NCBI GenBank assembly: GCA_963665115.1 | Contig: OY762007.1 | Location: 6,240,001 to 6,304,000 of the forward strand | Direction of reading: 5' to 3' | Source: an uncultured Rivularia sp. | Lineage (GTDB): Bacteria; Cyanobacteriota; Cyanobacteriia; Cyanobacteriales; Nostocaceae | Length of the DNA stretch: 64,000 nt | Shown: positions 14,189 to 51,766 of the stretch, one piece after another | Position numbering within the stretch: the first letter of the stretch is position 1 | Layout of the letters: the number at the start of each line of letters is the position of its first letter | Program-made: the position numbers and the translations under genes | The notes under the pieces: model-generated | Told to the model about the DNA's origin: nothing | The model's database searches: none | Seen by the model: only the letters and a program-made list of their open reading frames with translations

Positions 14189-17068
14189 ATGGACAAAAAT
14201 ATATTAGACCCCCATTTACGTTACGAAGATTGGATTCTGACCGAAAAATATTTCGACCCCGAACAACTTAACTATAAAGAAACTGTATTTACCATTGGTA
14301 ACGGTTATCTGGGTACGCGAGGAAGTTTTGAGGAAGGATATCCCGGTGCAGTAGCTGCTACTTTAATTAATGGGGTTTATGATGATGTTCCGCTTTACTA
14401 TACAGAACTTGTTAACTGTCCTGATTGGCTGCCCTTATATATTATTATCGATGACGAAGAATTTCGTTTAGATAAAGGAGAATTGTTTAATTACCAGCGT
14501 CAGCTAGACTTGAAACAAGGTATTCTAAGCCGTAAAATTGGCTGGCGCAGTCCGAATGGTAAAACAATCGACCTTCATTTTGAACGCTTTGCCAGTTTTG
14601 CAGACCAAAATGTTTTAGGATTACGCATTCAACTGACACCGATTGATTTTGAGGGTACGATTCGGATTCGCGGTAGTATTGATGGTAATCCTGAAGATAA
14701 TGATGGATTCAATCCCTGGTTAATTCTCGACCAAGATTATAGTGAAGCTAGTTCTTGTTTGCTAGTTAGGACTAGAACTTCTCGAATTGAATTGGGAATG
14801 GCATTTAAATTAGTAATATCTGGAACGAAACCCAGATTTAGAGATATAAGCGTTCCCGGTTTTCCCACGGTAGAAGCAAAGTTTGATGTTGTTCGAGGAG
14901 TTACCGTTACTGTAGAAAAATTAGTTACAGTTTTTACTTCACGAGACATCGAACATCCAATTCAAGCTGCTTGCGATAAGTTGCAGAAACTACCAAGCTA
15001 CGAAGATTTACGAAACCATCACGAACAAGCTTGGGAGAAAATATGGCATCACAGCGATATTGTAATAGAAGGAAGCGCTCAGGCTCAACTAGTTTTACGC
15101 TACAATCTTTTCCAACTATTAATTAGCGCTCCCCGTCATGACGATAGAGTTAGTGTTCCTGCCAAAACTTTATCTGGCTTCGGATATCGCGGTCATATAT
15201 TTTGGGATACAGAATTTTTTATACTGCCCTTTTTCCTGTTTACTCAACCTGATATTGCTCGTAATTTACTCAGCTACCGCTACCATACTTTGGAAGGAGC
15301 GCGACGCAAAGCAAAATATAACGGTTATCGTGGTGCAATGTATGCTTGGGAAAGCGCTGCAACCGGCGACGAAGTAACTCCGAGATGGGCACCAGCAAAG
15401 CATTTATATGAAGAAGATATTCGCATTTGGTGTCGCGATCGCGAAATTCACATTAGTTCTGATATTAGTATTGCAGCTTGGTTATACTGGCAGGTTACGA
15501 ACGATGATGAGTGGATGCGCGATTGTGGTGCAGAGATTATTCTCGATACAGCTTTGTTTTGGGGTAGCAGGGTTTATCTTGATGTGAAGCGCGAGTGTTA
15601 CTCTATTCTTGATGTAATTGGTCCCGATGAGTATCACGAAAATATAGATAATAATGCTTTTACCAATAGAATGGTGCAATGGCATTTGCAAATAGCTCTT
15701 GATATATACGATTGGCTAAAGACAAAATTCCCCAACAAAGCCACAGAATTAGAGGAAAAGCTACAATTAACTGAAAAAAGACGTTGGCGTTGGCTAGATA
15801 TTGCCGAAAATCTTTTTATTCCTTTTGATTCAAAAACGGGACTTATTGAACAGTTTGAAGGCTTTTTTAAATTAGAAAATGTCAACCTTGCCGATTACGA
15901 ACCTCGTACCGATTCAATGTTATCGATTTTGGGAATCAAGGAAATTAACAAGCGGCAGATTCTCAAGCAACCAGACGTATTGATGCTACTTTACTTGATG
16001 GAAAGAACTGCCGAAACTGATTATGGTAGAGAAGTTCTGAGAAAAAACTGGGATTATTACGCACCCCGTACCGACATTACTTATGGTTCTTCTTTAGGTC
16101 CTGCGATTCACGGACTTGTTGCAGCTTCTTTAGGTAATACGGGTGAGGCTTACGAAAATTTTAGATTAGCTGCACTGGTAGATTTAGAAAATACGCGAGG
16201 TAATGCAGATGAAGGAATTCATGCTGCATCCTGCGGTAGTATTTGGCAGGCTGTAATTTTCGGGGTTGCGGGTATCCAATTTACTAAAAATGGTCCTGTA
16301 GCCAAACCTAACTTACCACCTACTTGGAAACGTTTGCAATTTAAGCTTTTCTGGCGAGGTGATTGGCATTCCTTTGACTTAAAGCCAAAAGTAAGCAGCG
16401 TTAAATCGGAAATTAAAGGCTTTATTTTTGATTTAGATGGCGTACTTACGGATACAGCAGAATTCCATTACCAAGCTTGGCAAAAACTAGCAGACGAAGA
16501 AGGTATTCCTTTCAACCGCGAAGCTAACGAAGCATTACGGGGAATTTCTCGTCGAGATTCATTAATGAAAATAATAGGAAACAGAAAATACTCAGAGTCG
16601 CAAATCCAGGAGATGATGGAGCGCAAGAACCGCTACTATGTAGAATTTATTGAGCAAATAACACCAAAGGATTTATTACCAGGGGCGAGTGAATTAATAG
16701 AAGAATTGCGCTCCAAAGGAATTAAAATTGCGATTGGTTCGGGAAGTAAAAACGCTCGTACAGTAATCGAAAAATTGGGAATTGCTCCGAAGCTGGATGC
16801 AATTGCTGATGGTAACAGCGTCAAACGTTCTAAACCTGCACCAGATTTATTTTTATATGCTGCAAGTCAGTTAGGATTGGAACCGGAAGATTGCGTGGTG
16901 GTAGAAGATGCAGCTTCTGGAGTTGAAGCAGCACTTGCTGGAGGAATGAGAACTATAGGTATTGGTTCAGATGAAAGAGTTGGTGCTGCTCAAATTATTT
17001 TACCAAATTTAGAGGGTGCTACCTTCAAGAATATTCAGCATAAATTTAGTTTTTGTTTAGCGGATTAA
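14189..17068 (+). CDS. pgmB: GH65 kojibiose/trehalose phosphorylase fused to beta-phosphoglucomutase
   Basis: GNGYLGTRG, GHIFWDTE, GPDEYHE, KQPD, SSLGP; C-terminal HAD DLDGV, KPAPD, EDA. Confidence 0.92.
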   Translation: MDKNILDPHLRYEDWILTEKYFDPEQLNYKETVFTIGNGYLGTRGSFEEGYPGAVAATLINGVYDDVPLYYTELVNCPDWLPLYIIIDDEEFRLDKGELFNYQRQLDLKQGILSRKIGWRSPNGKTIDLHFERFASFADQNVLGLRIQLTPIDFEGTIRIRGSIDGNPEDNDGFNPWLILDQDYSEASSCLLVRTRTSRIELGMAFKLVISGTKPRFRDISVPGFPTVEAKFDVVRGVTVTVEKLVTVFTSRDIEHPIQAACDKLQKLPSYEDLRNHHEQAWEKIWHHSDIVIEGSAQAQLVLRYNLFQLLISAPRHDDRVSVPAKTLSGFGYRGHIFWDTEFFILPFFLFTQPDIARNLLSYRYHTLEGARRKAKYNGYRGAMYAWESAATGDEVTPRWAPAKHLYEEDIRIWCRDREIHISSDISIAAWLYWQVTNDDEWMRDCGAEIILDTALFWGSRVYLDVKRECYSILDVIGPDEYHENIDNNAFTNRMVQWHLQIALDIYDWLKTKFPNKATELEEKLQLTEKRRWRWLDIAENLFIPFDSKTGLIEQFEGFFKLENVNLADYEPRTDSMLSILGIKEINKRQILKQPDVLMLLYLMERTAETDYGREVLRKNWDYYAPRTDITYGSSLGPAIHGLVAASLGNTGEAYENFRLAALVDLENTRGNADEGIHAASCGSIWQAVIFGVAGIQFTKNGPVAKPNLPPTWKRLQFKLFWRGDWHSFDLKPKVSSVKSEIKGFIFDLDGVLTDTAEFHYQAWQKLADEEGIPFNREANEALRGISRRDSLMKIIGNRKYSESQIQEMMERKNRYYVEFIEQITPKDLLPGASELIEELRSKGIKIAIGSGSKNARTVIEKLGIAPKLDAIADGNSVKRSKPAPDLFLYAASQLGLEPEDCVVVEDAASGVEAALAGGMRTIGIGSDERVGAAQIILPNLEGATFKNIQHKFSFCLAD

Positions 17069-17123
17069 TTTATCAATAATTGGAGTGTTGTTTAAATAGT
17101 AGTTTAATTTAAACAAATATACT

Positions 17124-17216
17124 CAGGACTTACGCACGGACTACGTGTTTACGTCATTACGAGCGAAGAGAAGTAATCGCAAAGCTCTATTTTCCGTTAC
17201 GAGTGCGTAAGTCCTA
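17124..17216. mobile_element. ~93-bp MITE-like element
   Basis: TIR AGGACTTACGCAC / GTGCGTAAGTCCT, flanked by ATACT on both sides. Confidence 0.7.
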
Positions 17217-17232
17217 ATACTTTTTAATATCC

Positions 17233-17247
17233 CTCACAGCTTCCTCA
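17233..17247 (+). promoter_or_regulatory. Regulon box 6 (CTCACAGCTTCCTCA-N11-TATTCT)
   Basis: Motif and spacing. Confidence 0.8.
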
Positions 17248-17397
17248 CAATTTATCTTTATTCTTAATATTGAAGATTAATAAACGCTTATAATACTTAA
17301 TTTTTCAGCGACATTACAAATTAAATTATCATTCACTGGTATGGAATTTACGAACAAAAAACTACTGTTGTACTAAATATTCAATAAGGAGTATAAG

Positions 17398-17691
17398 ATG
17401 AAAACACAAGCTAAATATACACTTGCAGACCTATATAAAATCAAACAAATTAAAAGCGAGATTCAAGATTTGCGAGAACAACTTTCAGAAATTGACAGCG
17501 AAATTGACAGAAAAGAACAAGATAAGACTAATTTAGAACGGAGTAAGAAAACGAATCCTTTTCAAGAATGGTTAGATGAGCATGATGACGCTCATATTGA
17601 ACCAGCAGAAGAAGATAAAGAAAAACTATGGGGAAACTATATACTTGTCATCCTACTCGTTTTTTATCTTGTTCTCATCAGTTTTCTATAA
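17398..17691 (+). CDS. Hypothetical coiled-coil protein with C-terminal TM
   Basis: AAGGAG RBS; 97 aa. Confidence 0.7.
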   Translation: MKTQAKYTLADLYKIKQIKSEIQDLREQLSEIDSEIDRKEQDKTNLERSKKTNPFQEWLDEHDDAHIEPAEEDKEKLWGNYILVILLVFYLVLISFL

Positions 17692-18077
17692 AACGTAATG
17701 ATGATTTCTGGTCTACCCAAAACTCTACCAGATTTAAATTGTTTTTATATGATTGGGCAATGGGTAGAACCGGGTGGAAGTGTTCCAGTAGTCGCCATGT
17801 CGGGACGCAATATTATCCAGCAAATTTGTCATGAAGATAACAAAGCATTTGAGGTAGATAAACAATAAACTTGCTGCTATTTAATAAAGGATGAATAATA
17901 GTTATCGATATTTGTAAAAAATGTAAATAAATAAGTTTCTTTTAAGCATTAAATTCGTAACTAAGCTAATATTAAAGTGTAAGCAGTAATTGATGAATGG
18001 AAATAATTAAAGTAATTAACAAAGCACATTCATTTTTACTTATCTTACGGGAATTATATATATAGGAGGTCGAGGTT

Positions 18078-18458
18078 ATGCTGCGCGAACGTTTAACCGT
18101 GATTCCTGAAGAAAAAGCTAATATTCTCCCAGATGACAAATCTCTCACCCGCGAAATCAACTTACAAGACACTAATGAAGTGATGACAGAGTTGATGCGT
18201 GTTTTGGTGTTCCACGATTTTAAGACGATGGATGCTGACCCAACTCGTTGGGCTATGCAAGGAGGTTTGATAAAAGCAGGTCAACGAAATCCTCACAAAA
18301 TACAAGCATTCGTCAACATTGGTGCATCGGACAATATATTCGTGCAAATTGAGATTGTTTGCATACCCGAAAATCCAATGATTCTTGTAAAAGGCAAGTT
18401 CAAAACTACAGAAGTTTTGGAAATGATTCGCAATTTACCTTATTTTCCTCGGGACTAA
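18078..18458 (+). CDS. Hypothetical protein
   Basis: AGGAGG RBS, 126 aa. Confidence 0.7.
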   Translation: MLRERLTVIPEEKANILPDDKSLTREINLQDTNEVMTELMRVLVFHDFKTMDADPTRWAMQGGLIKAGQRNPHKIQAFVNIGASDNIFVQIEIVCIPENPMILVKGKFKTTEVLEMIRNLPYFPRD

Positions 18459-18505
18459 AATAAGGTCTGATATCTTGTAATTTTAAGCAGGATATACATG
18501 ACTTA

Positions 18506-18538
18506 TGTAGAGACGCTACATCTAAAAACGTCTCTACA
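18506..18538. repeat. TGTAGAGACG...CGTCTC palindromic dispersed repeat (also 794-824, 35123-35149, 37235-37260)
   Basis: Four intergenic copies, each near a gene 3' end. Confidence 0.75.
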
Positions 18539-18668
18539 CAATTAAATTTGCATTCAAAATTGATCGAGACCCATGCAAGCTAATTTGTCTTGGTAAAACT
18601 GGTTTTTTAGTTACATTTAATTTTACATAAAATAAATAATATATCCAAAAAAATATCTTTATAAAGAG

Positions 18669-19340
18669 GTGATTTATGTGTTACACAGCAAAAATAGAAA
18701 GAATTTAGGTCTTTTAGGTATCGCTTTACTTATTGGTCTAATTATTCCCGCTTGTTCGGATTATTTACTTGCAAAATCAACTGTCCAGAAACAAGAACTT
18801 AAGCCCAGTGTTTGCCAAATTTCTTTAGAGAAAAGGTCTTCTAAGAAGTCAACACTCACAGCCTGCAATCCAAGGAAACCAACTAAAATTACACGTACTT
18901 GTGATGTAGGTGCTTTTGTGATTGATAAAGATCCAAAAGGTTTGAATGTACGTAGCGGTCCGGGTACTAAGTATAGAATAATTGACAAGCTGCCCACTAT
19001 TTACAAAATAGCACCTGTTGAGGTGAGAATTGCAGCTTCTGTCGGTAACTGGGTAATGATTACCGAAGCAAGAGATCCAGCAGAAGGCAAAATTGAATTT
19101 CAAGGACGTGGATGGGTTTATGCGCCATTGTTAGGCACGATTACAGGAGGTCAGTCAGGTATTTGGGGATATACTCAACCAAACAAAAATAGTCCGAAAT
19201 TAGTAGCAACACTACCGTCAACAACAATTGTGAAGCTCAATGCGTGCAATGGAAAATGGGTCAAAATTGAACACGGAAATAGAAAAGCTTGGCTTGCACC
19301 ACAGGATTACTGCCCGACTGTAATTACCAGATGTAGCTGA
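18669..19340 (+). CDS. Bacterial SH3-domain exported protein
   Basis: GLNVRSGPGT, GWVY, hydrophobic N-terminus. Confidence 0.8.
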   Translation: MIYVLHSKNRKNLGLLGIALLIGLIIPACSDYLLAKSTVQKQELKPSVCQISLEKRSSKKSTLTACNPRKPTKITRTCDVGAFVIDKDPKGLNVRSGPGTKYRIIDKLPTIYKIAPVEVRIAASVGNWVMITEARDPAEGKIEFQGRGWVYAPLLGTITGGQSGIWGYTQPNKNSPKLVATLPSTTIVKLNACNGKWVKIEHGNRKAWLAPQDYCPTVITRCS

Positions 19341-19498
19341 GTGAATTGCAAATCAGATGCTTAAGAAACAAGCTTCTCAAAAATAGGAAAAAAGCACAAT
19401 CTTTAATCTCAACGATAAAATCCTCTTTAACTGATACCAATTAAGGTACTTTGATAAGGAGGATTTAGATATATCAAATTAAACAAGCCCTGAATAAG

Positions 19499-20362
19499 AT
19501 GAATAATAATTTAACAAACCAATCTCAAAGCGATAAAAAATTTTCATTACTGACATATTTACTGATAGTATTTGCAATTTCTTGGCCTTTTCAAGCATTT
19601 ATATTTTTCTTCCCTGAAGCGCTTTGGGCTTCCAAAATGCTTTTAGTTTCTATGATTATGGTAACAGTTGGCACCTTTATTGCAGGTAAGTATGTATTTC
19701 GAGATACATTTAGAGATGCGGGATGGAATTGGGGAAAACCCAAGTATTATTTAATAGTATTTGCTCTTCCAGTTATTGTTTGGGTATTTCCACAATTTAT
19801 AACAATATTATTGGGTATGCAAACATTGCCAGAAAGCTTTAATATATTTAATGCAATCACATTATTTTTACAATCATTTACCATTACATTAATTCCTGCT
19901 TTTGGAGAAGAATTTGGATGGAGAGGTTATTTATTGCCTCGTTTACTTTTGAAGCATTCCATCAAAAAAGCACTCATTATACAGGCGTTTATCTGGTGGG
20001 GATGGCATTTACCAGTTTTGATATTTGCAGGTATTAATACTCCAATAGTTAAGGAAAATATTATTCTTTCAATAATAATTATTTTAGCAATAAGTATAGT
20101 ACCTTCAATGATGCACGCAGTCATCTTTTCTTATTTTTGGTCTGCCTCTTCAAGTTTGCTTGTTGCAACGATTTACCATGCAGCATTTGATGAGGTAAGA
20201 GACACTGTTGAAAATATTGTAAGTCTTGGATCTTTGGCTCAACTTTGGCAAATGTTATTGTTAACTTTTATAGGAGCAATATTGCTTTGGAAGGGTAAAT
20301 GGAAAAAATTGGAAAACAGAAAAAATGCTATTGCGAAACCTGTACATTACTCGCATTCTTAA
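19499..20362 (+). CDS. CPBP/Abi-family intramembrane metalloprotease
   Basis: EEFGWRG, WWGWH, YHAAFD. Confidence 0.88.
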   Translation: MNNNLTNQSQSDKKFSLLTYLLIVFAISWPFQAFIFFFPEALWASKMLLVSMIMVTVGTFIAGKYVFRDTFRDAGWNWGKPKYYLIVFALPVIVWVFPQFITILLGMQTLPESFNIFNAITLFLQSFTITLIPAFGEEFGWRGYLLPRLLLKHSIKKALIIQAFIWWGWHLPVLIFAGINTPIVKENIILSIIIILAISIVPSMMHAVIFSYFWSASSSLLVATIYHAAFDEVRDTVENIVSLGSLAQLWQMLLLTFIGAILLWKGKWKKLENRKNAIAKPVHYSHS

Positions 20363-20845: not shown

Positions 20846-20983
20846 TTAAGAAAATTTGACGGGCACAGGTACCAAAACAACATCTTTGTTCAGTCCAGGT
20901 AATACAGGTAAGTTTTCTTTTGCTGGTGAGCCTTTATTTTTTCTTTCAGCATTTTTGAGAATAAAAATCAATAAGTTAATCAT
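20846..20983 (-). CDS. Unannotated 45-aa protein (MINLLIFILKNAERKNKGSPAKENLPVLPGLNKDVVLVPVPVKFS)
   Basis: GGAGGT RBS; first ORF downstream of box 7. Confidence 0.65.
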   Translation of the reverse strand: MINLLIFILKNAERKNKGSPAKENLPVLPGLNKDVVLVPVPVKFS

Positions 20984-22024: not shown

Positions 22025-23152
22025 TTAGCTATAACCTAAAGGTAAAGAACCAATAGAATCTTCTAATCTAGAAATATGCTCGGTATTCCCCACATAAATA
22101 CCCAAAGATTGCGCCGTTTTCACCAAAAAATTATCGGGTTTTACCAGCGACGGACTTTTAGCTATAACCTTTTCTAAAGGTACTGCTACTACTTCTCCAT
22201 TTTGCCAAGCCAACATTTTTGCAGTTTCTCCGTTAGCAATCAAATCAACAGCAGCTTTACCAAAAGCACTTGCCAACAATCTATCCCCAGCAGAAGGAAT
22301 ACCCCCTCGTTGAATATGTCCCAATACTGAAACTCTAATATCTAACTGATTGTGGGAACAGTTGCGAATTTCATCAGCAATATATTGTCCCATGCCGCAG
22401 GATGGTTTTGCTGTTTCACATTTAGGATAACAACAACTATCTTTAGCTATTCGAGCGCCTTCTGCAACAACTACAATTCCAAATCTGCGTCCCCAATTAT
22501 CTCGTAATTCTCGCAAGTGGGAACAAGCACCCTTAATTGAATAAGGTATTTCCGGAATCAAAATACAGTCAGCCCCTCCAGCTATTCCAGCCTGAAGTGC
22601 TAGATGTCCCGCACTCCTTCCCATTACTTCCACAATCATTACCCTATCGTGACTTGCAGCAGTAAAAGTTAAGCGGTTCAAAGCGTCAACAACTGTATTT
22701 AAAGCAGTATCAAAGCCTACTACTTTCTCTGTAAATGCAACATCATTATCAATTGTTTTGGGAATTGCAACAAACTGCCAATTTCCTTTATCCCGTAATT
22801 CATCAAGAATCGTTAAACTACCATCTCCCCCAATACCAATTAAAGCATCTAATTCTAATGCATTGTAACCAGCGATTATTTCATCAATATGAGCCAAAGT
22901 ATCGCCTTTATTAATGCTACCAAGAATAGTACCTCCCATATTTAACAAAGGATTCATACCTCGTAAATCCATACCGTGTACGGTCAAAGGAATAGCTTTT
23001 TTTTCTAACAACCCCGTTGTCGCATAGGGAATACCAAAAACTTGCCAATCATAAGTTACAATCGCATGGCTAACTACTGCTCGAATTGCAGCATTAAGTC
23101 CGGGACAATCACCACCACTTGTCAAGATACCGAGACGTTTTTGAGTTTTCAT
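22025..23152 (-). CDS. pfkA: 6-phosphofructokinase (PfkA family)
   Basis: TSGGDCPGLN, GGTILG, GGDGS, PKTIDND, EVMGR, LGHIQRGG. Confidence 0.95.
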   Translation of the reverse strand: MKTQKRLGILTSGGDCPGLNAAIRAVVSHAIVTYDWQVFGIPYATTGLLEKKAIPLTVHGMDLRGMNPLLNMGGTILGSINKGDTLAHIDEIIAGYNALELDALIGIGGDGSLTILDELRDKGNWQFVAIPKTIDNDVAFTEKVVGFDTALNTVVDALNRLTFTAASHDRVMIVEVMGRSAGHLALQAGIAGGADCILIPEIPYSIKGACSHLRELRDNWGRRFGIVVVAEGARIAKDSCCYPKCETAKPSCGMGQYIADEIRNCSHNQLDIRVSVLGHIQRGGIPSAGDRLLASAFGKAAVDLIANGETAKMLAWQNGEVVAVPLEKVIAKSPSLVKPDNFLVKTAQSLGIYVGNTEHISRLEDSIGSLPLGYS

Positions 23153-23361: not shown

Positions 23362-23408
23362 AATTTACACCCTCACGAAACCCTAATTGTCAGACTAAAG
23401 AGAAAATT

Positions 23409-23423
23409 TGAGAAACTTGTGAG
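23409..23423 (-). promoter_or_regulatory. Regulon box 8 (CTCACAAGTTTCTCA-N11-TAGTCT), toward the DUF2949-pfkA operon
   Basis: Consensus motif and spacing. Confidence 0.85.
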
Positions 23424-40526: not shown

Positions 40527-40604
40527 ATATTTTTGAGTATTTTTAAAATATATATACTTATCATTCTTAAATCCAGTTATTCATTGAGAATATAGTAATG
40601 GACT

Positions 40605-43367
40605 ATGTACAAAAGTAAAATGAATATCGGCAAAAAAAAGTTTATAAAAAAAAGTATTAATTCCAAACAAATTGTAACTAAAATTGAAAATCAAAAAATA
40701 GAAGATTGGCATACTATCGAAGCTGATTCTATTATCGAATCCTTGAATAGTTCTAAAACTCTGGGATTATCTAGCGAATCAGCTTCAGAAAAACTTCTGC
40801 GATACGGACAAAACCTTTTACCTGAGTCTGCAACCCGTTCGGAGTTAAGTATTTTTATCGAGCAATTTAAGTCACCACCAGTAGCTTTACTAACTGCTGC
40901 TGCGGTGGTTTCAACCGCAATGGGTGGCTGGGTTGATGCTTTGGTAATTATGGGGGTTGTAGGTATCAATGCAGTTATTGGCTATTTTACAGAAAGCCAA
41001 TCGGAAAAAATTATTCACTCTCTGAAAAAACATGACCGCCCATCTACTTTAGTTCTTAGAAATGGTAGTATAACTCAGGTAAACACTGAAAATATTGTTC
41101 CTGGAGATATTTTAGTTCTAAAGCCCGGTAGCTATATTGCAGCGGATGCCAGGTTAATTAAAACAGAAAATCTCAGCGTCGATGAATCGGCTTTAACTGG
41201 TGAAAGTATACCAGTGACTAAAGCAACTCAATCCCTTCACGGTGAAGATATTCCTCTTGCCGACCGGATAAATATGGTATACAAAGGCACCTTAGTGACT
41301 GGCGGACAAGGTATTGCTGTGGTGACTGCAACAGGTCAATTTACCGAACTAGGACAAATCCAACAATTGGTAGAAGAAGCTAGCGCTACAGATACTCCTC
41401 TAGCAAAACAACTCGATAAAGTTGGTAGTCAATTGGTTTTCCTTAGTAGCGGTATCTGCGTTGTTGTTTTTCTGATTGGACTACTGCGGGGCTACCCTTG
41501 GCTGACAATGCTGACGACATCTATATCCTTAGCTGTGGCAGCAGTTCCTGAAGGTTTATTGGCTGTAGCAACTACAACCCTGGCTTTAGGTATTCGAGAT
41601 ATGCGACGACATAACGTCCTTATCCGCAGCTTGAACGCAGTAGAAGCTTTGGGTTCGGTACAGAAGATTTGTTTGGATAAAACCGGCACAATTACGGAAA
41701 ACAGTATGTCAGTAGTTGAAATACATACTGATAGCCGAGTAATTCAAGTAAATAACGGTAAGTTTGTGAATGGTGAAAAAACAATTTATCTCAGTAATTG
41801 CGACGAATTTCTGCAATTGATTCGAGTATCGGTTCTTTGCAATGAAAGTAATGTGTTGCCACACTCAGATGGTGAATATATCGTTAATGGTTCTGCAACT
41901 GAAAATGCTTTAATTTATATGGCAATTGATGCCGGAATTGATGTTATTAGTCTCAGAGAAGATTATCCACTCACATATATTAATCAGCGCTCGGAAAATC
42001 GTAATATTATGAGTACGCTTCATGGTACTTCTGATGACCGTATATTAATTGCAGTCAAGGGAACACCAACAGAAATTTTACACCTGTGCAACCGGCAGAT
42101 CAAAGCAGGACAAGTAATTCCCCTTACAGAAGATGATAAATTAGCAATCGAAGTAGAAAATAAGCGAATGGCCGATAAAGCATTGCGCGTATTAGCAGCA
42201 GCTTATACCTATACCAACGAGTCGGAAAACAGCGAATATACTGAACAAAATCTTATCTGGTTGGGTTTAATTGCCATGACAGACCCTATTAGGAAAGGAG
42301 TCGAAGATTTAGTGAGTCAATTTCATCAAGCTGGAATTGATACCGTTATGATTACGGGGGATCAAACTGCTACCGCTTTCGCAATTGCTAAAGAATTGGA
42401 ACTAGCCAACCACAATCAACTGCAAATCCTCGATTCTACGGATATTAAAAACATTGAATCTGAAGAAAAAACAGCACTTTTTGACAAAGTAAATGTTTTT
42501 GCCAGAATTAGTCCTGCTAATAAGCTGCAAATTGTTCAAGCTTTGCAGTCAGCCGGACGAATTGTATCTATGACTGGCGATGGTATAAATGATGCCCCTG
42601 CTCTCAAAGCTGCGGATATAGGTGTGGCAATGGGAAATAGCGGTACTGATGCAGCCCGTGAAGTTGCCGATATCATTATTGCTGACGACAACTTGGAAAC
42701 TATGATTATTGCTGTGAGTCGGGGAAGAACTATTTACAACAACATTAGAAAATCGCTGCATTTTCTGCTTTCTACCAACCTCAGCGAAATTATGGTGATG
42801 CTAGCAGCGACGACTTTTGGTTTAGGACAACCTTTAAATGCGATACAGTTGCTATGGTTAAATTTAGTTACAGATATCTTTCCCGGTTTGGCACTTGCAT
42901 TAGAACCAAGCGAACCAGATGTTTTAAGTAAACCACCCCGCAATCCTGAAGAACCAATTATCAAAACATCAGACTTTGGTAATTTTATTGTTGAGTCTGG
43001 AAGCATAACTTTGAGTAGTTTAGCGGCTTATGGATACGGTATCAGCCAATATGGTATAGGTTTGCAAGCAAGTACCATTGCTTTTATGAGTCTGACACTT
43101 GGACAACTGCTTCATGCTTTGAGTTGTCGCTCCGATAAATACACCATATTTGATATTAGTAAACTACCGCAAAATCAATATTTGAATATTGCTCTTATTG
43201 GTTCCATTGGATTACAACTACTGTCAATTGGGGTTCCCCAACTGCGAACGCTATTAAGTCTGACGACCATTAGTATTGCGGATAGTATTGTAGTTAGTAG
43301 TAGTGCAATTTTACCATTGATATTTAATGAAATTAGAAAAAAAATAATTGTAGGTAAAAATGTTTGA
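40605..43367 (+). CDS. Type II cation-transporting P-type ATPase
   Basis: TGES, PEGL, DKTGT, TGDGINDAP. Confidence 0.93.
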   Translation: MYKSKMNIGKKKFIKKSINSKQIVTKIENQKIEDWHTIEADSIIESLNSSKTLGLSSESASEKLLRYGQNLLPESATRSELSIFIEQFKSPPVALLTAAAVVSTAMGGWVDALVIMGVVGINAVIGYFTESQSEKIIHSLKKHDRPSTLVLRNGSITQVNTENIVPGDILVLKPGSYIAADARLIKTENLSVDESALTGESIPVTKATQSLHGEDIPLADRINMVYKGTLVTGGQGIAVVTATGQFTELGQIQQLVEEASATDTPLAKQLDKVGSQLVFLSSGICVVVFLIGLLRGYPWLTMLTTSISLAVAAVPEGLLAVATTTLALGIRDMRRHNVLIRSLNAVEALGSVQKICLDKTGTITENSMSVVEIHTDSRVIQVNNGKFVNGEKTIYLSNCDEFLQLIRVSVLCNESNVLPHSDGEYIVNGSATENALIYMAIDAGIDVISLREDYPLTYINQRSENRNIMSTLHGTSDDRILIAVKGTPTEILHLCNRQIKAGQVIPLTEDDKLAIEVENKRMADKALRVLAAAYTYTNESENSEYTEQNLIWLGLIAMTDPIRKGVEDLVSQFHQAGIDTVMITGDQTATAFAIAKELELANHNQLQILDSTDIKNIESEEKTALFDKVNVFARISPANKLQIVQALQSAGRIVSMTGDGINDAPALKAADIGVAMGNSGTDAAREVADIIIADDNLETMIIAVSRGRTIYNNIRKSLHFLLSTNLSEIMVMLAATTFGLGQPLNAIQLLWLNLVTDIFPGLALALEPSEPDVLSKPPRNPEEPIIKTSDFGNFIVESGSITLSSLAAYGYGISQYGIGLQASTIAFMSLTLGQLLHALSCRSDKYTIFDISKLPQNQYLNIALIGSIGLQLLSIGVPQLRTLLSLTTISIADSIVVSSSAILPLIFNEIRKKIIVGKNV

Positions 43368-44684: not shown

Positions 44685-45164
44685 TTATTTGACAACTAAC
44701 ACCGAACAACAAGCGTGGTGAATAACATAACTGCTGACACTACCTAGCAAAACTTCTGCTATCGCACTATGTCCTCTACTACCTAATACAATTAAATCAG
44801 CACCCCAAGATTGAGCAAACTCGCAGATTTTCTTCCCTGGCTCTCCAAGCTCATAGGTATATGATGCGGGAATTTTATGCATTCGTGCTTGCTGAGTGTA
44901 ATATTCCGACCATTCACTGACTTTTTGGATTTCTTGTTTTAATTCCTGTTGATAGTTTTTGTGTAAATTTCCATATATATTGATATCACCAATAGTACCA
45001 ATACCACCGATAGATGATACTTCTCGAACCATCATATTGCTATTTATACAATGCAATAATTTGATTTCGTTATCTTTTTCTTTTACTAAATCTAACGCTG
45101 TTTGAAAGACTTTTCCTGTTTGGTTAGATTTATCTAGAGCAACTAAAATCTTGCGATTAATCAT
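44685..45164 (-). CDS. Universal stress protein
   Basis: KILVALD, ADLIVLGSRG, LLGSVS. Confidence 0.92.
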   Translation of the reverse strand: MINRKILVALDKSNQTGKVFQTALDLVKEKDNEIKLLHCINSNMMVREVSSIGGIGTIGDINIYGNLHKNYQQELKQEIQKVSEWSEYYTQQARMHKIPASYTYELGEPGKKICEFAQSWGADLIVLGSRGHSAIAEVLLGSVSSYVIHHACCSVLVVK

Positions 45165-45214
45165 GATTTCTCCTCACAGTAAATATTCAATACTTTTACT
45201 TTATAGATATAATT

Positions 45215-45229
45215 TGAAGAAAATGTGAG
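45215..45229 (-). promoter_or_regulatory. Regulon box 19 (CTCACATTTTCTTCA-N11-TAAAGT), toward the USP gene
   Basis: Motif variant and spacing. Confidence 0.7.
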
Positions 45230-45248
45230 GATACAAATTCAAAGCTTC

Positions 45249-45263
45249 CTCACAAGTTCCTCA
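45249..45263 (+). promoter_or_regulatory. Regulon box 20 (CTCACAAGTTCCTCA-N11-TATAAA), toward pflA-adhE
   Basis: Consensus motif; back-to-back with box 19. Confidence 0.88.
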
Positions 45264-45334
45264 AATTATTCCCGTATAAATCAAAGTGAAGCGAATAAAA
45301 AGCTTCAATCTCTTGCGTGCTATGGGTAATAGCT

Positions 45335-46087
45335 ATGTTACATCCAGTATCTGAAGTTGCTACATTCGGTTACATCCACTCAGTTGAAACTTGTGGTACG
45401 GTGGATGGTCCTGGTATTCGTTTTATAATTTTTACTACAGGTTGTCCCCTACGTTGTTTGTATTGCAGTAATCCCGACTGTCGCTATCTGGAACATGGAA
45501 AACAGGTAACAGTTGATGAATTGATTGCTGAAATTAAAAAATATACTTCTTACATGAAAGCATCGGGTGGAGGTGTAACAATTAGCGGTGGTGAACCTTT
45601 ATTCCAACCAGAATTTGTTAGAGAAATTTTTCGACGCTGTAAAGAATTAGGAATACATACGGCTTTAGATACATCTGGATTTTGTAATTTAGAAACCGCA
45701 AAATCTGTATTAGAATTTGTAGATTTAGTATTGCTTGATATTAAATCATTTGAACCAGCTACTTACACCAAAGTCACGGGAGTTGATATCAAACCAACGC
45801 TAATTCTTGCTAAATACTTGAGTGATATTAATAAGCCAGCCTGGATTCGATTTGTATTGGTACCTGACTTAACAGATGATACGGACAATATAACCGGATT
45901 AGCCGATTTTATTTCTACCCTTAAAAATATTCAAAGAGTTGAAGTATTACCATTTCATAAAATGGGTGAATACAAATGGGAAGAACTAGGTTACGAATAC
46001 AAATTAAAAGAAACTCCAAGCCCCACCTCGGAACAGGTAGAAAAAGTATTAAATATCTTCCGCAGCAAAGGTATTTTCACTCTTTAA
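45335..46087 (+). CDS. pflA: Pyruvate formate-lyase activating enzyme (radical SAM)
   Basis: GTVDGPGIR, CPLRCLYC, SGGEP, LPFHKMG. Confidence 0.95.
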   Translation: MLHPVSEVATFGYIHSVETCGTVDGPGIRFIIFTTGCPLRCLYCSNPDCRYLEHGKQVTVDELIAEIKKYTSYMKASGGGVTISGGEPLFQPEFVREIFRRCKELGIHTALDTSGFCNLETAKSVLEFVDLVLLDIKSFEPATYTKVTGVDIKPTLILAKYLSDINKPAWIRFVLVPDLTDDTDNITGLADFISTLKNIQRVEVLPFHKMGEYKWEELGYEYKLKETPSPTSEQVEKVLNIFRSKGIFTL

Positions 46088-46131
46088 TTAAAACTTTGCC
46101 AAACTCTGCATTTCAATAAAGGAGTAAAATT

Positions 46132-48837
46132 ATGCAAGTTACCAATATTCAAGAATTAGAGTTACTAGTAGAAAACGTCAAAGCAGCACAAGAAAAATAC
46201 GCTACATATTCTCAAGAGAAAGTTGATTTTATTTTTAAACACGCAGCATTAGCAGCCAATAATCAAAGAATACCTTTAGCAAAATTGGCTGTTTCTGAAA
46301 CAGAAATGGGTATTATAGAAGATAAAGTAATTAAAAACCACTTTGCATCGGAATATATTTATAACAAATATAAGCATGAAAAAACCTGCGGTCTTATCGA
46401 AGAAGATAGAAGTTTTGGTATTCAAAAAATAGCCGAACCAGTAGGAATTATTGCTGGAATTGTTCCCGTAACTAACCCTACATCTACAACTATTTTTAAA
46501 GCATTGATAGCTCTCAAAACCCGCAATGGAATTATTCTTTCTCCCCATCCTAAAGCTAAAAAATGCACCATAGAAGCAGTAAAAATTATCTTAGAAGCAG
46601 CAGTTTCTGCTGGTGCGCCAGAAAATATTATCGGTTGGATTGACGAACCAACGGTAGAATTATCCCAAGCATTAATGCAGCATTCCGATATCAAACTAAT
46701 TTTAGCAACTGGCGGACCGGGAATGGTACATGCTGCTTATTCTTCGGGACATCCATCATTAGGTGTAGGAGCAGGAAATACTCCTGCGGTAATTGACAAA
46801 TCGGCTGATATTCAAACTGCTGTCAGTTCGATTTTGTTGAGTAAAACTTTTGATAATGGAATGATTTGTGCTTCGGAACAATCTGTAATTATTGTTGATG
46901 ATATTTACGAACAAGTTAAACAGGAATTTATGTGTCGGGGTGCATATTTTCTCAACGATACAGAAAAAAGCCAACTGGGTAATGTAATTTTAAAGGAAGG
47001 AAGATTAAATCCAGCAATTGTCGGACAGTCGGTAGAAAAGATAGCTCAATTAGCAGGATTTAAACTCAAAAGTGAAGTTTCTGGATGTGGAAAAGATACT
47101 TATTGTCCGCTACCAAGTAGCTATAAAACTTTAATTGCTGAAGTAGAAGACATTGGTAAATCAGAACCTTTTGCTTATGAAAAATTATCGCCAATTTTAG
47201 CAATGTATCGAGCAACAAACTTTCATGAAGCAGTTGCTAAAGCCGAAAGCTTGATTGAATTTGGCGGTCCCGGACATACTGCCGTATTGTATACCAATCC
47301 AGCTAATTACGATGATATTACTTATTTCGAGAATGCAATTAAAACGGGAAGAGTTTTGATAAATACACCATCTTCTCAAGGTGCAATCGGTGATTTATAT
47401 AATTTCAAATTAGACCCATCTCTAACTTTGGGTTGTGGAACTTGGGGTGGTAATACAATATCCGATAACGTCGCACCCCATCACCTACTAAATATTAAAA
47501 CAGTATCCCAGCGTCGGGAAAATATGCTGTGGTTCCGCGTTCCCCCAAAAATTTATTTTAAATCTGGTTGTTTACCTGTAGCTTTAGGAGATTTAACTGG
47601 TAAAAAACGAGCATTTATTGTTACGGATAAACCATTGTTTGATTTAGGAATTGTCGATAGTGTCACCAAGGTTTTAGAGGAAATCGGCATCAAATACGAT
47701 ATATTCCACGAGGTTGAACCAGACCCCAATTTATCTAATGTTAAACAGGGTTTAGCATTATTAAACAATTATCAACCAGATGTAATTATTGCTATTGGTG
47801 GTGGTTCACCGATGGATGCAGCTAAAGTTATGTGGTTGATGTACGAACATCCCGAGGTGGAATTTGCTGGTTTAGCAATGCGATTTATGGATATTCGTAA
47901 GCGAGTTTATGAACTACCATCCTTGGGACAAAAAGCAATGTTAGTCGCTATTCCTACGACTTCCGGTACTGGTTCGGAGGTAACGCCATTTGCAGTTGTC
48001 ACCGACGAAAAAGCAGGAGTTAAGTATCCTTTAGCAGATTATTCCCTAACACCAAATATGGCAATTGTAGACCCAGAATTGGTTTTAAATATGCCAACAA
48101 AGTTAACTGCATACGGTGGCATTGATGCTTTAACTCATGCACTAGAATCTTATGTTTCGGTAATGGCTACTGAGTTTACCGATGGATTAGCATTACAGGC
48201 AATAGATTTACTATTTAAATACTTGCCCAGAGCCTATAAAAATGGCAAAAATGACCCCGAAGCGCGGGAAAAAGTTCATTATGCAGCAACAATTGCAGGA
48301 ATGGCATTTGCTAATGCTTTCTTAGGAGTTTGTCATTCAATGGCTCATAAATTAGGAGCAACTTTTCACGTACCCCACGGCTTAGCAAATGCGCTGATGA
48401 TTTCCCATGTAATTCGTTACAATGCTACCGATATTCCTTTCAAACAAGCTATTTTTCCACAGTACAAATATCCCCACGCCAAACAGCGTTATGGTGAAAT
48501 TACAGATTTCTTGGGATTGGGTGGAAATACCCTTGATGAAAAAATTGAAAAATTAGTGGAAGCGGTAGAAAATCTCAAGCATGAAGTTGATATTCCTTTA
48601 ACGATTAAAGAAACATTGGGAGATGATGAACAAGCTTTTTATAGTAGTTTAGAAACAATGGCAGAACAAGCATTTGATGACCAATGTACCGGAGCAAATC
48701 CCCGCTATCCGTTAATTAACGATTTGAAAGAATTGTACGTTTTAGCTTATCGCGGTTGTCGTACTGATGCGGCTTTTTATCATGTAGATGAATCGGATAA
48801 TTTGCAGTTGGAAGAAGTGAGGATGGGTAATGGGTAA
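46132..48837 (+). CDS. adhE: Bifunctional acetaldehyde-CoA/alcohol dehydrogenase
   Basis: DNGMICASEQ, GCGTWG, GGGSPMD, CHSMAHK. Confidence 0.96.
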   Translation: MQVTNIQELELLVENVKAAQEKYATYSQEKVDFIFKHAALAANNQRIPLAKLAVSETEMGIIEDKVIKNHFASEYIYNKYKHEKTCGLIEEDRSFGIQKIAEPVGIIAGIVPVTNPTSTTIFKALIALKTRNGIILSPHPKAKKCTIEAVKIILEAAVSAGAPENIIGWIDEPTVELSQALMQHSDIKLILATGGPGMVHAAYSSGHPSLGVGAGNTPAVIDKSADIQTAVSSILLSKTFDNGMICASEQSVIIVDDIYEQVKQEFMCRGAYFLNDTEKSQLGNVILKEGRLNPAIVGQSVEKIAQLAGFKLKSEVSGCGKDTYCPLPSSYKTLIAEVEDIGKSEPFAYEKLSPILAMYRATNFHEAVAKAESLIEFGGPGHTAVLYTNPANYDDITYFENAIKTGRVLINTPSSQGAIGDLYNFKLDPSLTLGCGTWGGNTISDNVAPHHLLNIKTVSQRRENMLWFRVPPKIYFKSGCLPVALGDLTGKKRAFIVTDKPLFDLGIVDSVTKVLEEIGIKYDIFHEVEPDPNLSNVKQGLALLNNYQPDVIIAIGGGSPMDAAKVMWLMYEHPEVEFAGLAMRFMDIRKRVYELPSLGQKAMLVAIPTTSGTGSEVTPFAVVTDEKAGVKYPLADYSLTPNMAIVDPELVLNMPTKLTAYGGIDALTHALESYVSVMATEFTDGLALQAIDLLFKYLPRAYKNGKNDPEAREKVHYAATIAGMAFANAFLGVCHSMAHKLGATFHVPHGLANALMISHVIRYNATDIPFKQAIFPQYKYPHAKQRYGEITDFLGLGGNTLDEKIEKLVEAVENLKHEVDIPLTIKETLGDDEQAFYSSLETMAEQAFDDQCTGANPRYPLINDLKELYVLAYRGCRTDAAFYHVDESDNLQLEEVRMGNG

Positions 48838-48985
48838 TTGGTAATTGGTAATTGGTAATTGGTAATTGGTAATTGGTAGTTGGTAATTGGTAATGGGTAA
48901 TAGGTGATTGGTAATTAGTGATTATCAACTCTTAACTCCTAACTCTTAACTCCTAACTCCTAACTCCTAACTCCTAATTACTCCC
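48824..48985. repeat. STRR tracts (GGTAATT)n and (CTCCTAA)n
   Basis: Long tandem heptamer runs overlapping the adhE stop. Confidence 0.85.
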
Positions 48986-49015
48986 TACTTCCTATTTTCA
49001 AAACAGGAGTGATTT

Positions 49016-51766
49016 ATGCAACAAACAATTAAGATAGCCTCAGACCGTGCTTATGATATTCTTCGTTCCCAACATCACCCCTTAGATGCTATTTTTACAC
49101 CTAAAAACGTTGCGGTTATCGGTGCATCTGGGAAAGAAGGTAGCGTAGGACGTACTCTGTTGTGGAATCTCGTTAGCCATCCTTTTGGGGGAACGGTTTT
49201 TCCTGTTAATCCCAAACACAATAGCATTTTGGGTATCAAAGCCTACCCAAATATTGCCGCAGTTCCAGAAGTTATTGACTTAGCAATTATTGCTACTCCC
49301 GCTACAACTGTACCTAGTGTTATTGCTGAATGCGTAGATGCGGGAGTTAAAGGTGCAATTGTGGTTTCTGCTGGGTTTCGGGAAACGGGAACTACAGGAT
49401 TAGAACTAGAGCAGCAGGTGTTAGAACAAGTTCGTCGCTCTCAAATGCGGTTAATTGGTCCTAACTGTTTGGGAATTATTAATCCCCATATTGGCTTAAA
49501 TGCGAGCTTTGCTAGTGGTATGGCACTTCCTGGTAAAGTCGGATTTATCAGTCAGAGTGGGGCATTGTGTACGGCTATTTTAGATTGGAGTTTCCGCGAA
49601 AATGTCGGATTTAGTGCTTTTATTTCCATCGGTTCCATGCTCGATGTTGATTGGGGAGATTTAATTTATTACCTCGGCGACGACCCCCATACGGAAAGTA
49701 TTGTGATTTACATGGAATCTATCGGTAATGCTCGTTCTTTTCTTTCAGCTGCGCGGGAAGTTGCTTTAACCAAACCGATTATAGTCATCAAAGCCGGACG
49801 TACTGAAATTGCAGCCAAAGCCGCAACATCCCATACAGGTGCCTTAGCGGGAAGCGACGCGGTATTTGATGCAGCCTTAAGACGCTGTGGGGTATTGCGA
49901 GTTAATCGCATTTCTGAATTATTCGATATGTCAGAGGTGTTGTCAAAACAACCCCGTCCCAAAGGTAAACGAATGACAATTATTACTAATGCTGGGGGAC
50001 CTGGGGTTTTAGCTACAGATGCGTTAATTTCTGGAGGGGGAGAACTGGCTGAGTTAACCGTTGAAACTCGCGATGCTTTGGATAAATTATTACCTGCAAA
50101 TGCTAGCTGCAATAACCCAATTGATTTATTAGGAGATGCAGATTATAAGCGTTACGAAAATGCTTTAAAAATTGTCAGTCAAGATAAAAATACTGATGCA
50201 ATTTTGGTAATTTTAACACCGCAGGCAATGACAAACCCTACCAAAATAGCAGAAGTTTTAACAGCTTGTGCCAAAAGCAATAAACCAATTTTAGCAAGTT
50301 GGATGGGTAACTCAGAAATCCAAGCTGGGGCAGAAATTCTCAATCAAGCCGCAATTTCCACGTTTCCCTATCCCGATACTGCTGCCCGAATTTTTAATTA
50401 TATGTGGCGCTATAGTTATAATTTGCGTAGTTTATACGAAACTCCAGTATTAGCTAATCCAGAAGTAGATTTTTTCCATTGTAATTTAGTTGAGAAAATC
50501 ATTGAGAAGGCACGTCGCGAAACAAGATATTTATTAACAGAAATTGAATCAAAAAAAATACTTGCAGCTTATGGAATTCCAACTGTAGAAACATATCTCG
50601 CAACAACAGTAGAATCCGCTATTCAAATAGCAGATAAAATTGGTTATCCGGTAGTAATGAAAGTTTATTCATATACCATTACCCATAAATCGGATGTGAA
50701 TGGAGTGCATTTAAATTTATGTTGCGCCGATGCTGTTAGAGAAGCATATCAAGCTATTCAAACATCGGTGACACAGAAAGTTGGTAGCAGCCATTTTGCT
50801 GGGGTGACAATTCAGCCAATGGTGAATTTAAAAAACAGCTATGAATTGATATTGGGTAGTAGTATAGATGCTCAATTTGGACAAGTTTTACTATTCGGTA
50901 CGGGAGGACAACTAGTTGAGGTATTTCAAGATAGAGCATTGGGATTACCTCCACTTAATACTACCTTGGCTCGGCGAATGATGGAACAAACTCAAATTTA
51001 CAAAGCATTAAAAGGAGTTAGAGGAAGAACATCTATTTCATTAGATAAATTAGAGCAGCTTTTAGTTCGTTTTAGTCAGTTAGTTGTAGAACAACCTGGG
51101 ATTAAGGAAATTGATATTAATCCGCTTTTAGCAAAACCAGGTATTGATGATTCATTGATAGCATTAGATGGAAGAATTGTACTGCACAATTTAGATGCGA
51201 ACATCGAAAAATTACCAAAACCTGCAATTCGTCCCTATCCAATCCAATATATCTCAACTTGGAAAATGCAAAACGGGATGGAAATTACTATACGTCCGAT
51301 TCGTCCCGAAGATGAGCCGTTAATGATTCAATTTCACCATGAATTATCACAGCAAAGCGTTTATTTTCGCTACTTTCATCTGATTAAAATTAGCCGACGT
51401 ATTGCTCACGAACGTTTAACAAGATTGTGCTTTATAGATTATGACCGAGAAATGGCTTTAGTCGCCGATTATTATAATCCTCAAACTCAAAAAAATGAAA
51501 TTTTAGCTGTTGCGAGATTAAGTAAACTACACCAAACAAATCAGGCTGAGTTTGCTTTGATAGTAGCAGATAAATATCAGTGTCAAGGAATAGGAAGCGA
51601 ATTACTAAAACGATTGTTGCAAATTGGGAAAGATGAGAAATTGAGCGAAATCAATGCAGAAATTTTGTTAGAAAATCTGGGGATGCAGCGAGTTTGTGAA
51701 AAACTAGGGTTTATTATTCAGCCTACAGATGATTGTTCTGTGGTTAAAGCTGCTATTGCTTTGTAA
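49016..51766 (+). CDS. Bifunctional acetate-CoA ligase (ADP-forming type)/GNAT acetyltransferase
   Basis: [26 protein letters not shown]-grasp, C-terminal GNAT QCQGIG. Confidence 0.9.

Follow-up and report, generated by a model that had tools for sequence, protein, structure and literature searches.

The DosR dormancy regulon of mycobacteria comprises genes for universal stress proteins (Usp), Hsp20, Acg, an AAA_33 kinase, a cation P-type ATPase, CBS proteins, a GH65 fusion and phosphofructokinase, and is governed by a NarL-family regulator with a palindromic site and haem-GAF sensors. The L-box of Fremyella is a direct repeat with an 11-bp period, its sequence being different from that of the element described here. 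In filamentous cyanobacteria, the trigger of the bidirectional hydrogenase and the fermentation genes is unsettled. The Acaryochloris marina plasmid pREB4 carries a conserved block of about 100 kb for which two papers propose the role of a redox module in fermentation (Miller et al. 2022, PMC8949462; Yamamoto et al. 2022, PMC9324425). A sigma factor and a PAS kinase are suggested there to control it, and the accessible portions of the two papers name no box. Here, a stretch of 64,000 nucleotides (the window; G000:C1:6,240,001-6,304,000) from the one-contig, 8.69-Mb genome G000 of an uncultured Rivularia sp. was analyzed, in which seven genes for sugar breakdown and fermentation stand behind a short repeated sequence (the box). 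Our verdict is that these genes form a single branch of a DosR-like regulon that appears to be undescribed, and that they do not make up a pathway dedicated to a disaccharide. Their fermentation enzymes are nothing unusual; what makes the locus interesting is the pairing of box and regulator and how far it extends, not the list of enzymes. Neither the box nor this regulator was found described in a literature search, although subscription papers or unseen supplements may hold one.

The box and the genes behind it

The box has the form CTCACA-N5-CTCA(A/C)A, a direct repeat with half-sites 11 bp apart. The pattern CTCACAANNNNCTCA matched the window 16 times against 0.01 expected, and none of 100 shuffles exceeded one match. 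With a matrix trained on 19 window sites and a threshold of at least 20 bits for a strong site, 35 strong sites were obtained in G000, of which 30 lie within 6,210,372-6,292,193 (21 in the window) and five outside. This 82-kb region (the island) begins about 30 kb before the window, and nine further boxes and a regulator gene are located there. One outside site (1,326,482; 20.6 bits) was dropped before the remaining 34 were aligned. A TA, outside the matrix columns, was found exactly 26 nt after the box start in 33 of the 34, that is, 9 nt behind the box, and a -10-like element of the form TAnnnT in 21. The TA at fixed spacing reads as a -10 element, which would put the box at about -38 to -22; this position relative to the -10 matches the geometry of the Pho box. 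The 11-bp direct repeat, the fixed -10 distance and a linked winged-helix (PF00486) regulator are features of an OmpR/PhoB-type regulon. A CRP-type palindrome was rejected, since the paired TGTGA...TCACA is two divergent boxes at variable distance. Generic sigma-70 and terminator scans of 45000-52400 remained at shuffle level (27 vs 26.9 and 7 vs 5.1, respectively), and nothing was found in the window by Rfam or ARAGORN.

The seven genes, the identities of which were checked with Pfam and NCBIfam profiles, form five apparent units, each behind a sense box:

14074-14090 (+): box, 115 nt upstream of the GH65 gene; -10-like TATTAA at offset 26
14189-17068 (+): GH65 phosphorylase-beta-phosphoglucomutase (beta-PGM) fusion (TIGR01990, 256 bits; cut-off 189)
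23407-23423 (-): box, 271 nt upstream of pfkA; -10-like TAGTCT
22025-23152 (-): PfkA, ATP-dependent 6-phosphofructokinase (NF002872, 403 bits; cut-off 253)
30089-30105 (-): box, 65 nt upstream of pyk; -10-like TATAAA
28469-30040 (-): divergent pyruvate kinase (closest model PRK14725; no PK_C domain match)
32471-32487 (+): box, 410 nt upstream of pflB; -10-like TACAAC
32881-35110 (+): PflB, pyruvate formate-lyase (PFL), in two frames in the assembly
45249-45265 (+): box, 68 nt upstream of pflA-adhE-ligase; -10-like TATAAA
45317-46087 (+): PflA, PFL-activating enzyme (TIGR02493, 334 bits; cut-off 232)
46132-48837 (+): AdhE (NF010378, 1406 bits; cut-off 951), without its own box
49016-51766 (+): ADP-forming acyl-CoA ligase fused to GNAT, without its own box

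From this arrangement, adhE and the ligase gene are probably transcribed from the pflA promoter; the operon remains putative because a weak hairpin lies near the adhE end (48758-48773). An earlier, sequence-only reading had held that each transcription unit starts at a box and that the genes form a dedicated route from a disaccharide to fermentation end products. The first statement held for the five units of the seven genes, but not the fermentation specificity implied in it: only 5 of the 21 window boxes lead these genes, and the other 16 face genes for a psbU paralogue, CBS proteins, Usp and a P-type ATPase as well as outer-membrane, peptidoglycan-binding, crtI-like and hypothetical genes. 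Within 14189-51766, the genes at 18078, 18669, 19499, 30423 and 43522 have no box in front. The non-fermentation boxes of the whole island precede units with Usp, Hsp20, ppsA, the N-ATPase operon, MBL, rhodanese, psbU, CBS-CP12 and the P-type ATPase, and genes for Acg (NF047509 above cut-off; PDB 2YMV) and an AAA_33 kinase lie downstream in box-led units. The four retained sites outside the island face a Usp gene, a second OmpR regulator, an Hsp20-ppsA-Usp duplicate and a hydrolase-like gene. With a box regulon this much wider, a dedicated disaccharide-to-end-product island was not supported.

In other genera, the box leads pflB, pflA-adhE-ligase, pfkA, CBS-CP12, psbU, ppsA, hox and a nifJ-like gene. 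It was found upstream of hoxE in 27 of 30 family loci and upstream of island-clade pfkA in 24 of 30, always with the TA; these were the 30 best-scoring loci of 59 and 84 matching genomes, respectively, and the pfkA set includes G000. In a survey of 301 genomes from the whole phylum, enrichment of the pattern was seen mainly in the family of G000 (37 of 38 matched, with up to 43 matches) and in a few others, controls giving 0-3; kin genomes in these surveys are not independent. Of 26 congeners, 21 were found to have the island GH65, 13 pyk, 6 pflB, 4 pfkA and 4 the complete pflA-adhE-ligase block, and all seven genes occurred together in three (G015, G018 and G020); these counts are lower bounds, several genomes being fragmented. 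Congener G013 has pflB and pflA in a shuffled gene order and no adhE-ligase match. By this distribution, the fermentation genes appear to behave as separately gained (and lost) box-promoter cassettes.

The window boxes of at least 20 bits (n = 21; span 2595-52209) and the other features named above are as follows:

Boxes, first third: 2611 (-), 9625 (-), 9734 (+), 14032 (-), 14074 (+), 17233 (+), 21110 (-)
Boxes, second third: 23423 (-), 28444 (-), 30105 (-), 32451 (-), 32471 (+), 37023 (-), 37104 (+)
Boxes, last third: 37685 (+), 40056 (-), 40512 (+), 45229 (-), 45249 (+), 51806 (+), 52193 (+)
2982-6293 (+): CBS-PAS-histidine kinase-receiver hybrid, a candidate second regulon input
14016-14032 (-): divergent box before the psbU paralogue (13559-13957) and an mgtC-like gene
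27005-27631 (-): CBS-CP12, behind gene 27653-28327 and box 28428-28444
31841-32374 (-): second CBS protein with shortened CP12 part, behind box 32435-32451
40605-43367 (+): cation P-type ATPase, behind box 40512-40528
44685-45164 (-): universal stress protein, behind box 45213-45229

The psbU paralogue is an odd member for a dark or low-oxygen regulon; box-led psbU also occurs on pREB4 and in G031. Together with the CP12 genes and short tandem repeats of the window and the Nostocales origin of the regulator orthologues, psbU marks the source as a filamentous cyanobacterium. Two small open reading frames (ORFs), 20846-20983 (-; 45 aa) and 51884-52003 (+; 39 aa), follow the orphan boxes 21110 and 51806 and may encode unannotated small proteins. 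The N-ATPase operon, with an inserted cation/proton antiporter, lies at 6.224-6.235 Mb (L003:4259-14849) in the pREB4 gene order; two small genes lie between atpA and atpG, and atpG is led by a separate box. The Hsp20-ppsA-Usp duplicate at 8.424 Mb (L007:7314-9625) is partial and includes a ppsA fragment (93% identical). An IS630 element with 35-bp terminal inverted repeats (55026-56358) lies near the right end of the island and another transposase near the left end (L002:4248-5856); farther left (L001, L002:1-4000) are large ATPase/helicase genes of defence-island type and plasmid-like genes.

The regulator and its signal

The regulator gene of the island is located as follows:

G000:C1:6210890-6214843 (-): RcaC-type hybrid regulator, 1317 aa, inside the 82-kb island

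Its domain order is REC-wHTH-Hpt-REC-REC-PAS-GAF-PAS-HisKA-HATPase (wHTH, winged helix-turn-helix), with the wHTH encoded at G000:6214124-6214438, and a single-receiver gene follows it; such a receiver was present at 71 of 80 regulator loci. At 50 of 80 titled Nostocales orthologue loci, a box lies within 10 kb (69 boxes, 66 of them with the TA), mostly before Usp, Hsp20 or ppsA genes, and the reversed matrix gave one site at the same 80 loci. A full-length regulator match of at least 86% was found in 20 of the 26 congeners (6-43 pattern matches each, median 22). Four congeners that are at least 99% complete, without the hybrid regulator, have 4-9 matches, and two (G002 and G022) are incomplete genomes. 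The four hybrid-less congeners keep a short second regulator with the identical helix EEAVRTHIKGLR, which is common to the box-linked regulators; box-less paralogues have other helices. In G000 and G021, this second regulator is located at a divergent box pair, beside a CBS-PAS kinase. The pREB4 regulator of Acaryochloris is 68% identical, and the block has 17 boxes of at least 16 bits at 113.6-226.7 kb, 13 of them with the TA at the expected spacing; no boxes were found in the plasmid backbone at 20-70 kb (bases 1-20,000 were outside the scan). The plasmid regulators of Stanieria and Chroococcidiopsis have KTL for KGL in the helix, and the first half-site of the boxes there has CATA for CACA (9 of 9 and 2 of 2). 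The plasmid C regulator of Anabaena variabilis has a different helix, and its locus has no boxes. The co-variation of helix and box, in two cases, is suggestive, and these associations together make it very probable that the box is read by this regulator clade. The Stanieria plasmid (NC_019765) carries, with the variant CTCATA box and the KTL-helix regulator, a parallel island with ppsA, lactate dehydrogenase, Fe-ADH, Usp, Hsp20, FtsH and Dps genes.

For the PAS domain adjoining the kinase, at about residues 961-1090, the best PDB matches were FixL (E 2.6e-15) and DosP. His1027 aligns with the proximal His of FixL (helix F) and is kept in 79 of 80 scored orthologues. A single-sequence AlphaFold model of this domain (pLDDT 49) was too poor to use. 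PDB 10jx, a 145-aa PAS from a 'multi-sensor histidine kinase', also matches it (E 3.9e-10) and could represent a relative that has already been studied. G000 encodes two hybrid histidine kinases of the CBS-PAS type (window 2982-6293 and L006:2383-5514), and a kinase of this type adjoins a box-type regulator at 7.44 Mb of G000, in G021 and in G052, a placement that suggests adenylate sensing.

Published expression data, taken from the accessible parts of three studies, bear on the signal. In A. variabilis grown in the dark with fructose under aerobic conditions (6.1-6.3 mg/l), compared with phototrophic growth, the pfkA gene Ava_3044 rose from 201 to 2379, hoxH from about 340 to 9,700 and the hox-linked CBS gene from about 600 to 25,700 (PMC4046671), a dark rise of 12-43-fold; with fructose in the light, these genes changed just 0.8- to 3-fold, and both listed pyruvate kinases fell in the dark (PMC4046671). 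Ava_C0174 (8-fold dark rise) was flagged as misannotated and not used. In illuminated Nostoc PCC 7120 moved from 3% CO2 to air for 1 h, ppsA, hox and nifJ changed -107-, -74- and -42-fold, which the authors tentatively credit to LexA and cyAbrB (PMC7699953). Further candidate regulon members are ptox (-65), the feo operon (-43) and an ndhR-like gene (-146), all of which fell alongside (PMC7699953). The plasmid pfkA of this strain was rejected as a link between box and expression, being of another clade (51%) and without boxes. For Acaryochloris marina, kept for 7 days in the light, 47 pREB4 coding rows from D0138 onward were taken from Table S3, in which differentially expressed genes only are listed (PMC5295598). 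Of the box-led genes, 9 of 11 were more than 2-fold down in illuminated micro-oxic cultures, compared with 9 of the 36 other genes (Fisher p 0.001); hoxE, which has a weak site in front, went up, and psbU (D0138) is given as -0.13 in the main table versus -1.17 in the supplement (PMC5295598). The box-led pREB4 genes are co-regulated, but not induced by low oxygen in the light.

Darkness or energy limitation best fits these data, which do not show oxygen to be the trigger; the argument for oxygen sensing comes from the PAS domain. Of the night or anoxia control proposed earlier, the night part agrees with the dark rise in A. variabilis, but oxygen as the trigger does not agree with the lowering of box-led genes in micro-oxic A. 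marina. We consider it probable that box-led genes are induced by darkness or low oxygen, and put direct oxygen sensing by the PAS of the regulator, as predicted from the alignment, just short of an even chance.

The reading we favour, with somewhat better than even confidence, is that the cassettes led by boxes in the 82-kb island would be activated through the RcaC-type regulator encoded there at low oxygen or low energy, for example at night. The 30 island boxes are likely activator sites for it. A winged-helix dimer would bind head to tail at about -38 to -22 and recruit the polymerase, replacing a -35 element. The FixL-like PAS would bind haem via His1027, the kinase working once oxygen is off, and the CBS-PAS kinases and the same-helix second regulator may contribute an adenylate input. 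PfkA, pyruvate kinase, PFL, AdhE and the ADP-forming ligase would then convert hexose phosphate, of which glycogen is probably the main source by way of housekeeping steps without boxes, to formate, ethanol and acetate, and Usp, Hsp20, Acg, CBS-CP12 and N-ATPase would protect the cell meanwhile. The GH65 enzyme would feed on or make alpha-1,2-glucosides as a regulon member, not as a dedicated pathway entry.

Several observations weigh against this reading. The dark cultures of A. variabilis were aerobic, and in the Nostoc experiment the CO2 was stepped down in cells that had been pelleted and given fresh medium. The chromosomal genes of both strains are tied to the box by orthology. In illuminated A. 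marina, micro-oxia brought the box-led genes down rather than up, and high oxygen lowered 7 of the 11 as well. No nearby box was found at 30 of the 80 regulator loci, three hybrid-bearing congeners have only 6-7 boxes, the wHTH tree is poorly resolved, and the G013 orthologue has Asn at the position of His1027. Phosphoenolpyruvate (PEP) synthase and pyruvate kinase under the same box would form a futile cycle unless the PEP synthase is reversed. Neither a FocA-type formate channel nor a Hox hydrogenase was found in G000.

Some of these points serve a rival that keeps the same box and regulator and takes energy or carbon status (adenylates via CBS-PAS kinases, or CO2/pH), not oxygen, as the signal; fermentation genes would then be on in any darkness or carbon surplus. 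Induction in aerobic dark A. variabilis, the collapse upon CO2 step-down in illuminated Nostoc, the fall of A. marina genes in N2- and O2-flushed sealed flasks alike, and the CBS-PAS kinases in the island and beside box-type regulators are consistent with it. It is confronted by a haem-type PAS conserved beside the kinase in nearly all orthologues and by oxygen-labile PFL, Hox and PFOR in the regulon, and the expression studies are confounded, having been designed for other questions. We regard this rival as rather unlikely.

The fermentation enzymes and the remaining alternatives

The presence of all seven enzymes named in the sequence-only reading was borne out by the Pfam and NCBIfam profiles, and the catalytic motifs are retained in all of them. 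PflB has the Cys-Cys pair and the RVSGY glycyl loop, its activase PflA is encoded as well, and AdhE is a fused aldehyde and Fe-alcohol dehydrogenase above the curated cut-off. The genes pfkA, pflB, pflA, adhE and that for the acyl-CoA ligase are present in one copy each in G000. As for paralogues of the two glycolytic enzymes, there is no other PfkA in G000, but two ordinary pyruvate kinases are encoded elsewhere (31% and 27% identity). The GH65-beta-PGM fusion has a 54% paralogue, and there is a third GH65. The ligase scored 558 bits against TIGR02717 (cut-off 567), and its best PDB match is a 4-hydroxybutyrate-CoA ligase. ATP-yielding acetate formation by this ADP-forming enzyme is plausible because both phospho-His motifs (SHTG and HKSD) are kept in alignment with PDB 8WZU, unlike in PatZ. 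A PatZ-type acetyltransferase identity was rejected, the alpha His being kept here and absent in PatZ-type 9IT0; since a GNAT domain is present, the fusion may still have acetyltransferase activity.

The closest solved relative of the island GH65 is the kojibiose phosphorylase (KP) CsKP (PDB 3WIQ; E 1.8e-136). W387 and E388 of the island enzyme are the equivalents of W391 and E392 of CsKP, and the third motif residue is Cys instead of Thr (T417 of CsKP); the island enzyme also carries the beta-PGM fusion. Its catalytic Glu motif is GPDEYHE. In the accessible part of a GH65 review, the subsite motifs are given as WET for kojibiose and WRA for trehalose, and two Nostoc sp. enzymes are classed as KP (PMC11442529). 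By its motif, the island GH65 is predicted to be kojibiose-type rather than trehalose-type. A trehalose phosphorylase identity was rejected, WE being found in place of WRA. Trehalose entry through the island enzyme is likewise not supported by its sequence, because of this WE motif, while a WR-type (trehalose-phosphorylase-like) GH65 adjoining a beta-PGM sits box-less at 2.079 Mb; treY is also located elsewhere in G000, outside the island. Sucroglucans (alpha-1,2-glucosylated sucrose, with glucose on position 2 of the glucose of sucrose) accumulate in Anabaena according to the accessible part of PMC4390843, and are candidate substrates or products of the island GH65.

A biosynthetic role has accordingly to be weighed, in which GH65-beta-PGM converts glucose-6-phosphate to beta-glucose-1-phosphate and transfers alpha-1,2-glucose onto sucrose (sucroglucan-type solutes), the island being a general stress or dormancy module with incidental fermentation. 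This reading, which is compatible with the favoured one, agrees with the kojibiose-type motif, with the sucroglucans of Anabaena and with the occurrence of GH65 mostly without PfkA or PFL in the congeners. Nevertheless, a UDP-glucose-dependent glucosylsucrose synthase is reported from another cyanobacterium (PMC9909042), with which a phosphorylase would be unnecessary for synthesis. No full-length sucrose synthase above cut-off was found in G000, and the reaction direction is unreadable from sequence. We consider this role unlikely.

The route of the sequence-only reading, a dedicated island by which, in dark anoxia, a stored disaccharide of the trehalose or the kojibiose type is fermented to ethanol, acetate and formate, draws on the boxes before all five units, the single copies of five of the seven genes and their joint occurrence in G015, G018 and G020. 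GH65 plus beta-PGM gives glucose-6-phosphate by established chemistry. Against it stand the 16 window boxes serving other genes, the uneven spread of the seven genes among the congeners with the shuffled order in G013, and the subsite motif lacking the trehalose signature. A second catabolic cluster, without boxes, also speaks against it; at G000:C1:7,925,000-7,938,400 it comprises phosphoketolase, glgP, gap, pyk, tal and ackA, and includes a split, putative D-lactate-dehydrogenase-like gene without a family match. Such a route is very unlikely in our view.

The reading of pflB depends on one extra A near 33804, by which the gene is split into two frames and both halves fall below the full-length TIGR01255 cut-off. 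The sequencing runs X1, X2 and X3 come from the same organism as G000, and X9 is an RNA run from a relative, the contig depths of which cannot serve to rank genes. The extra base is absent from X1 and X3 contigs (zero substitutions over 2.5 kb), in which the gene is intact, and from X9, and is present in X2, which matches the assembly at the split sites. The extra bases of the assembly at 26419, at 37316 and within the second regulator are likewise missing from X1 and X3, again with zero substitutions, and pflB frames of 691-789 aa are open in five congeners (98-99% identity). The split is probably an assembly error. Further split ORFs are found at window 6711-7929 and 24392-26870, in nifJ (6,470,462-6,474,023; outside the island, without a box) and the second regulator (7,443,930), and in the genes for Lon and the antiporter in the upstream stretch L003; genes for an M28 peptidase and an amine oxidase are among those split. 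A decaying, horizontally acquired relic with pseudogenes and leftover repeats for boxes, to which the split ORFs, the agreement of X2 and the transposases at both ends would point, is extremely improbable given the intact contigs of X1 and X3, the open pflB of congeners, the equally split nifJ outside the island, and a box and spacing conserved from Nostocales to the Acaryochloris and Stanieria plasmids.

Comparison with described systems

A broader reading is advanced tentatively, at somewhat less than even confidence: a single-polypeptide haem-PAS kinase and RcaC-type activator would be the cyanobacterial counterpart of the DosR and FixLJ hypoxia switches, and, through the CTCACA-N5-CTCAAA box, would act throughout Nostocales as the so far missing master switch of hox, pfl, adhE, nifJ, pfkA and ppsA, with box cassettes accreting into islands and conjugative plasmids and with PFL/AdhE and PFOR/Hox as interchangeable outputs. 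If this is true, metabolism at night or at low oxygen would in many cyanobacteria be under a switch that has so far gone unrecognised, the co-occurrence of N-ATPase and hox on Acaryochloris plasmids would be explained, and a promoter active in the dark or at low oxygen would be at hand for the engineering of hydrogen and ethanol production. The question of the trigger becomes testable, with a specific regulator as candidate, a precisely defined site and promoter geometry, and a residue that may do the sensing.

The pREB4 block shares with the island the N-ATPase operon and antiporter, ppsA, pfkA, a psbU paralogue, Usp, Hsp20 and nitroreductase, and also CBS, CP12, MgtC, DUF6544, DUF1816, adenosine kinase, MBL and rhodanese; its regulator belongs to the clade of the island regulator, and its box is the same. 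The plasmid carries PFOR and Hox, whereas the chromosomal island carries PFL, AdhE and the ADP-forming ligase. The island was rejected as a pREB4-type block of N-ATPase, Hox and PFOR: N-ATPase is there, Hox was not found, and nifJ lies elsewhere without a box.

In the RcaE-RcaF-RcaC system of Fremyella diplosiphon, as described in the accessible part of PMC4752607, a REC-wHTH-Hpt-REC regulator and a single-receiver partner occur as in the island. Here, in contrast, the kinase is fused into the regulator, a FixL-like PAS replaces the bilin photoreceptor, and the targets are stress and fermentation genes, not phycobiliproteins. With the kinase fused in this way and no phycobiliprotein gene among the box-led genes of G000, identity with this chromatic-acclimation system was rejected. 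As in FixL/FixJ and DosP, the PAS stands directly before the kinase and the proximal His is aligned, haem binding being predicted here. Unlike in FixL, the output is an OmpR-family winged helix within the same polypeptide, not FixJ/FixK. Finally, the island brings DosR-like gene classes under one box; with an OmpR-family wHTH and a direct repeat, it is an analogue and not a member of that regulon.

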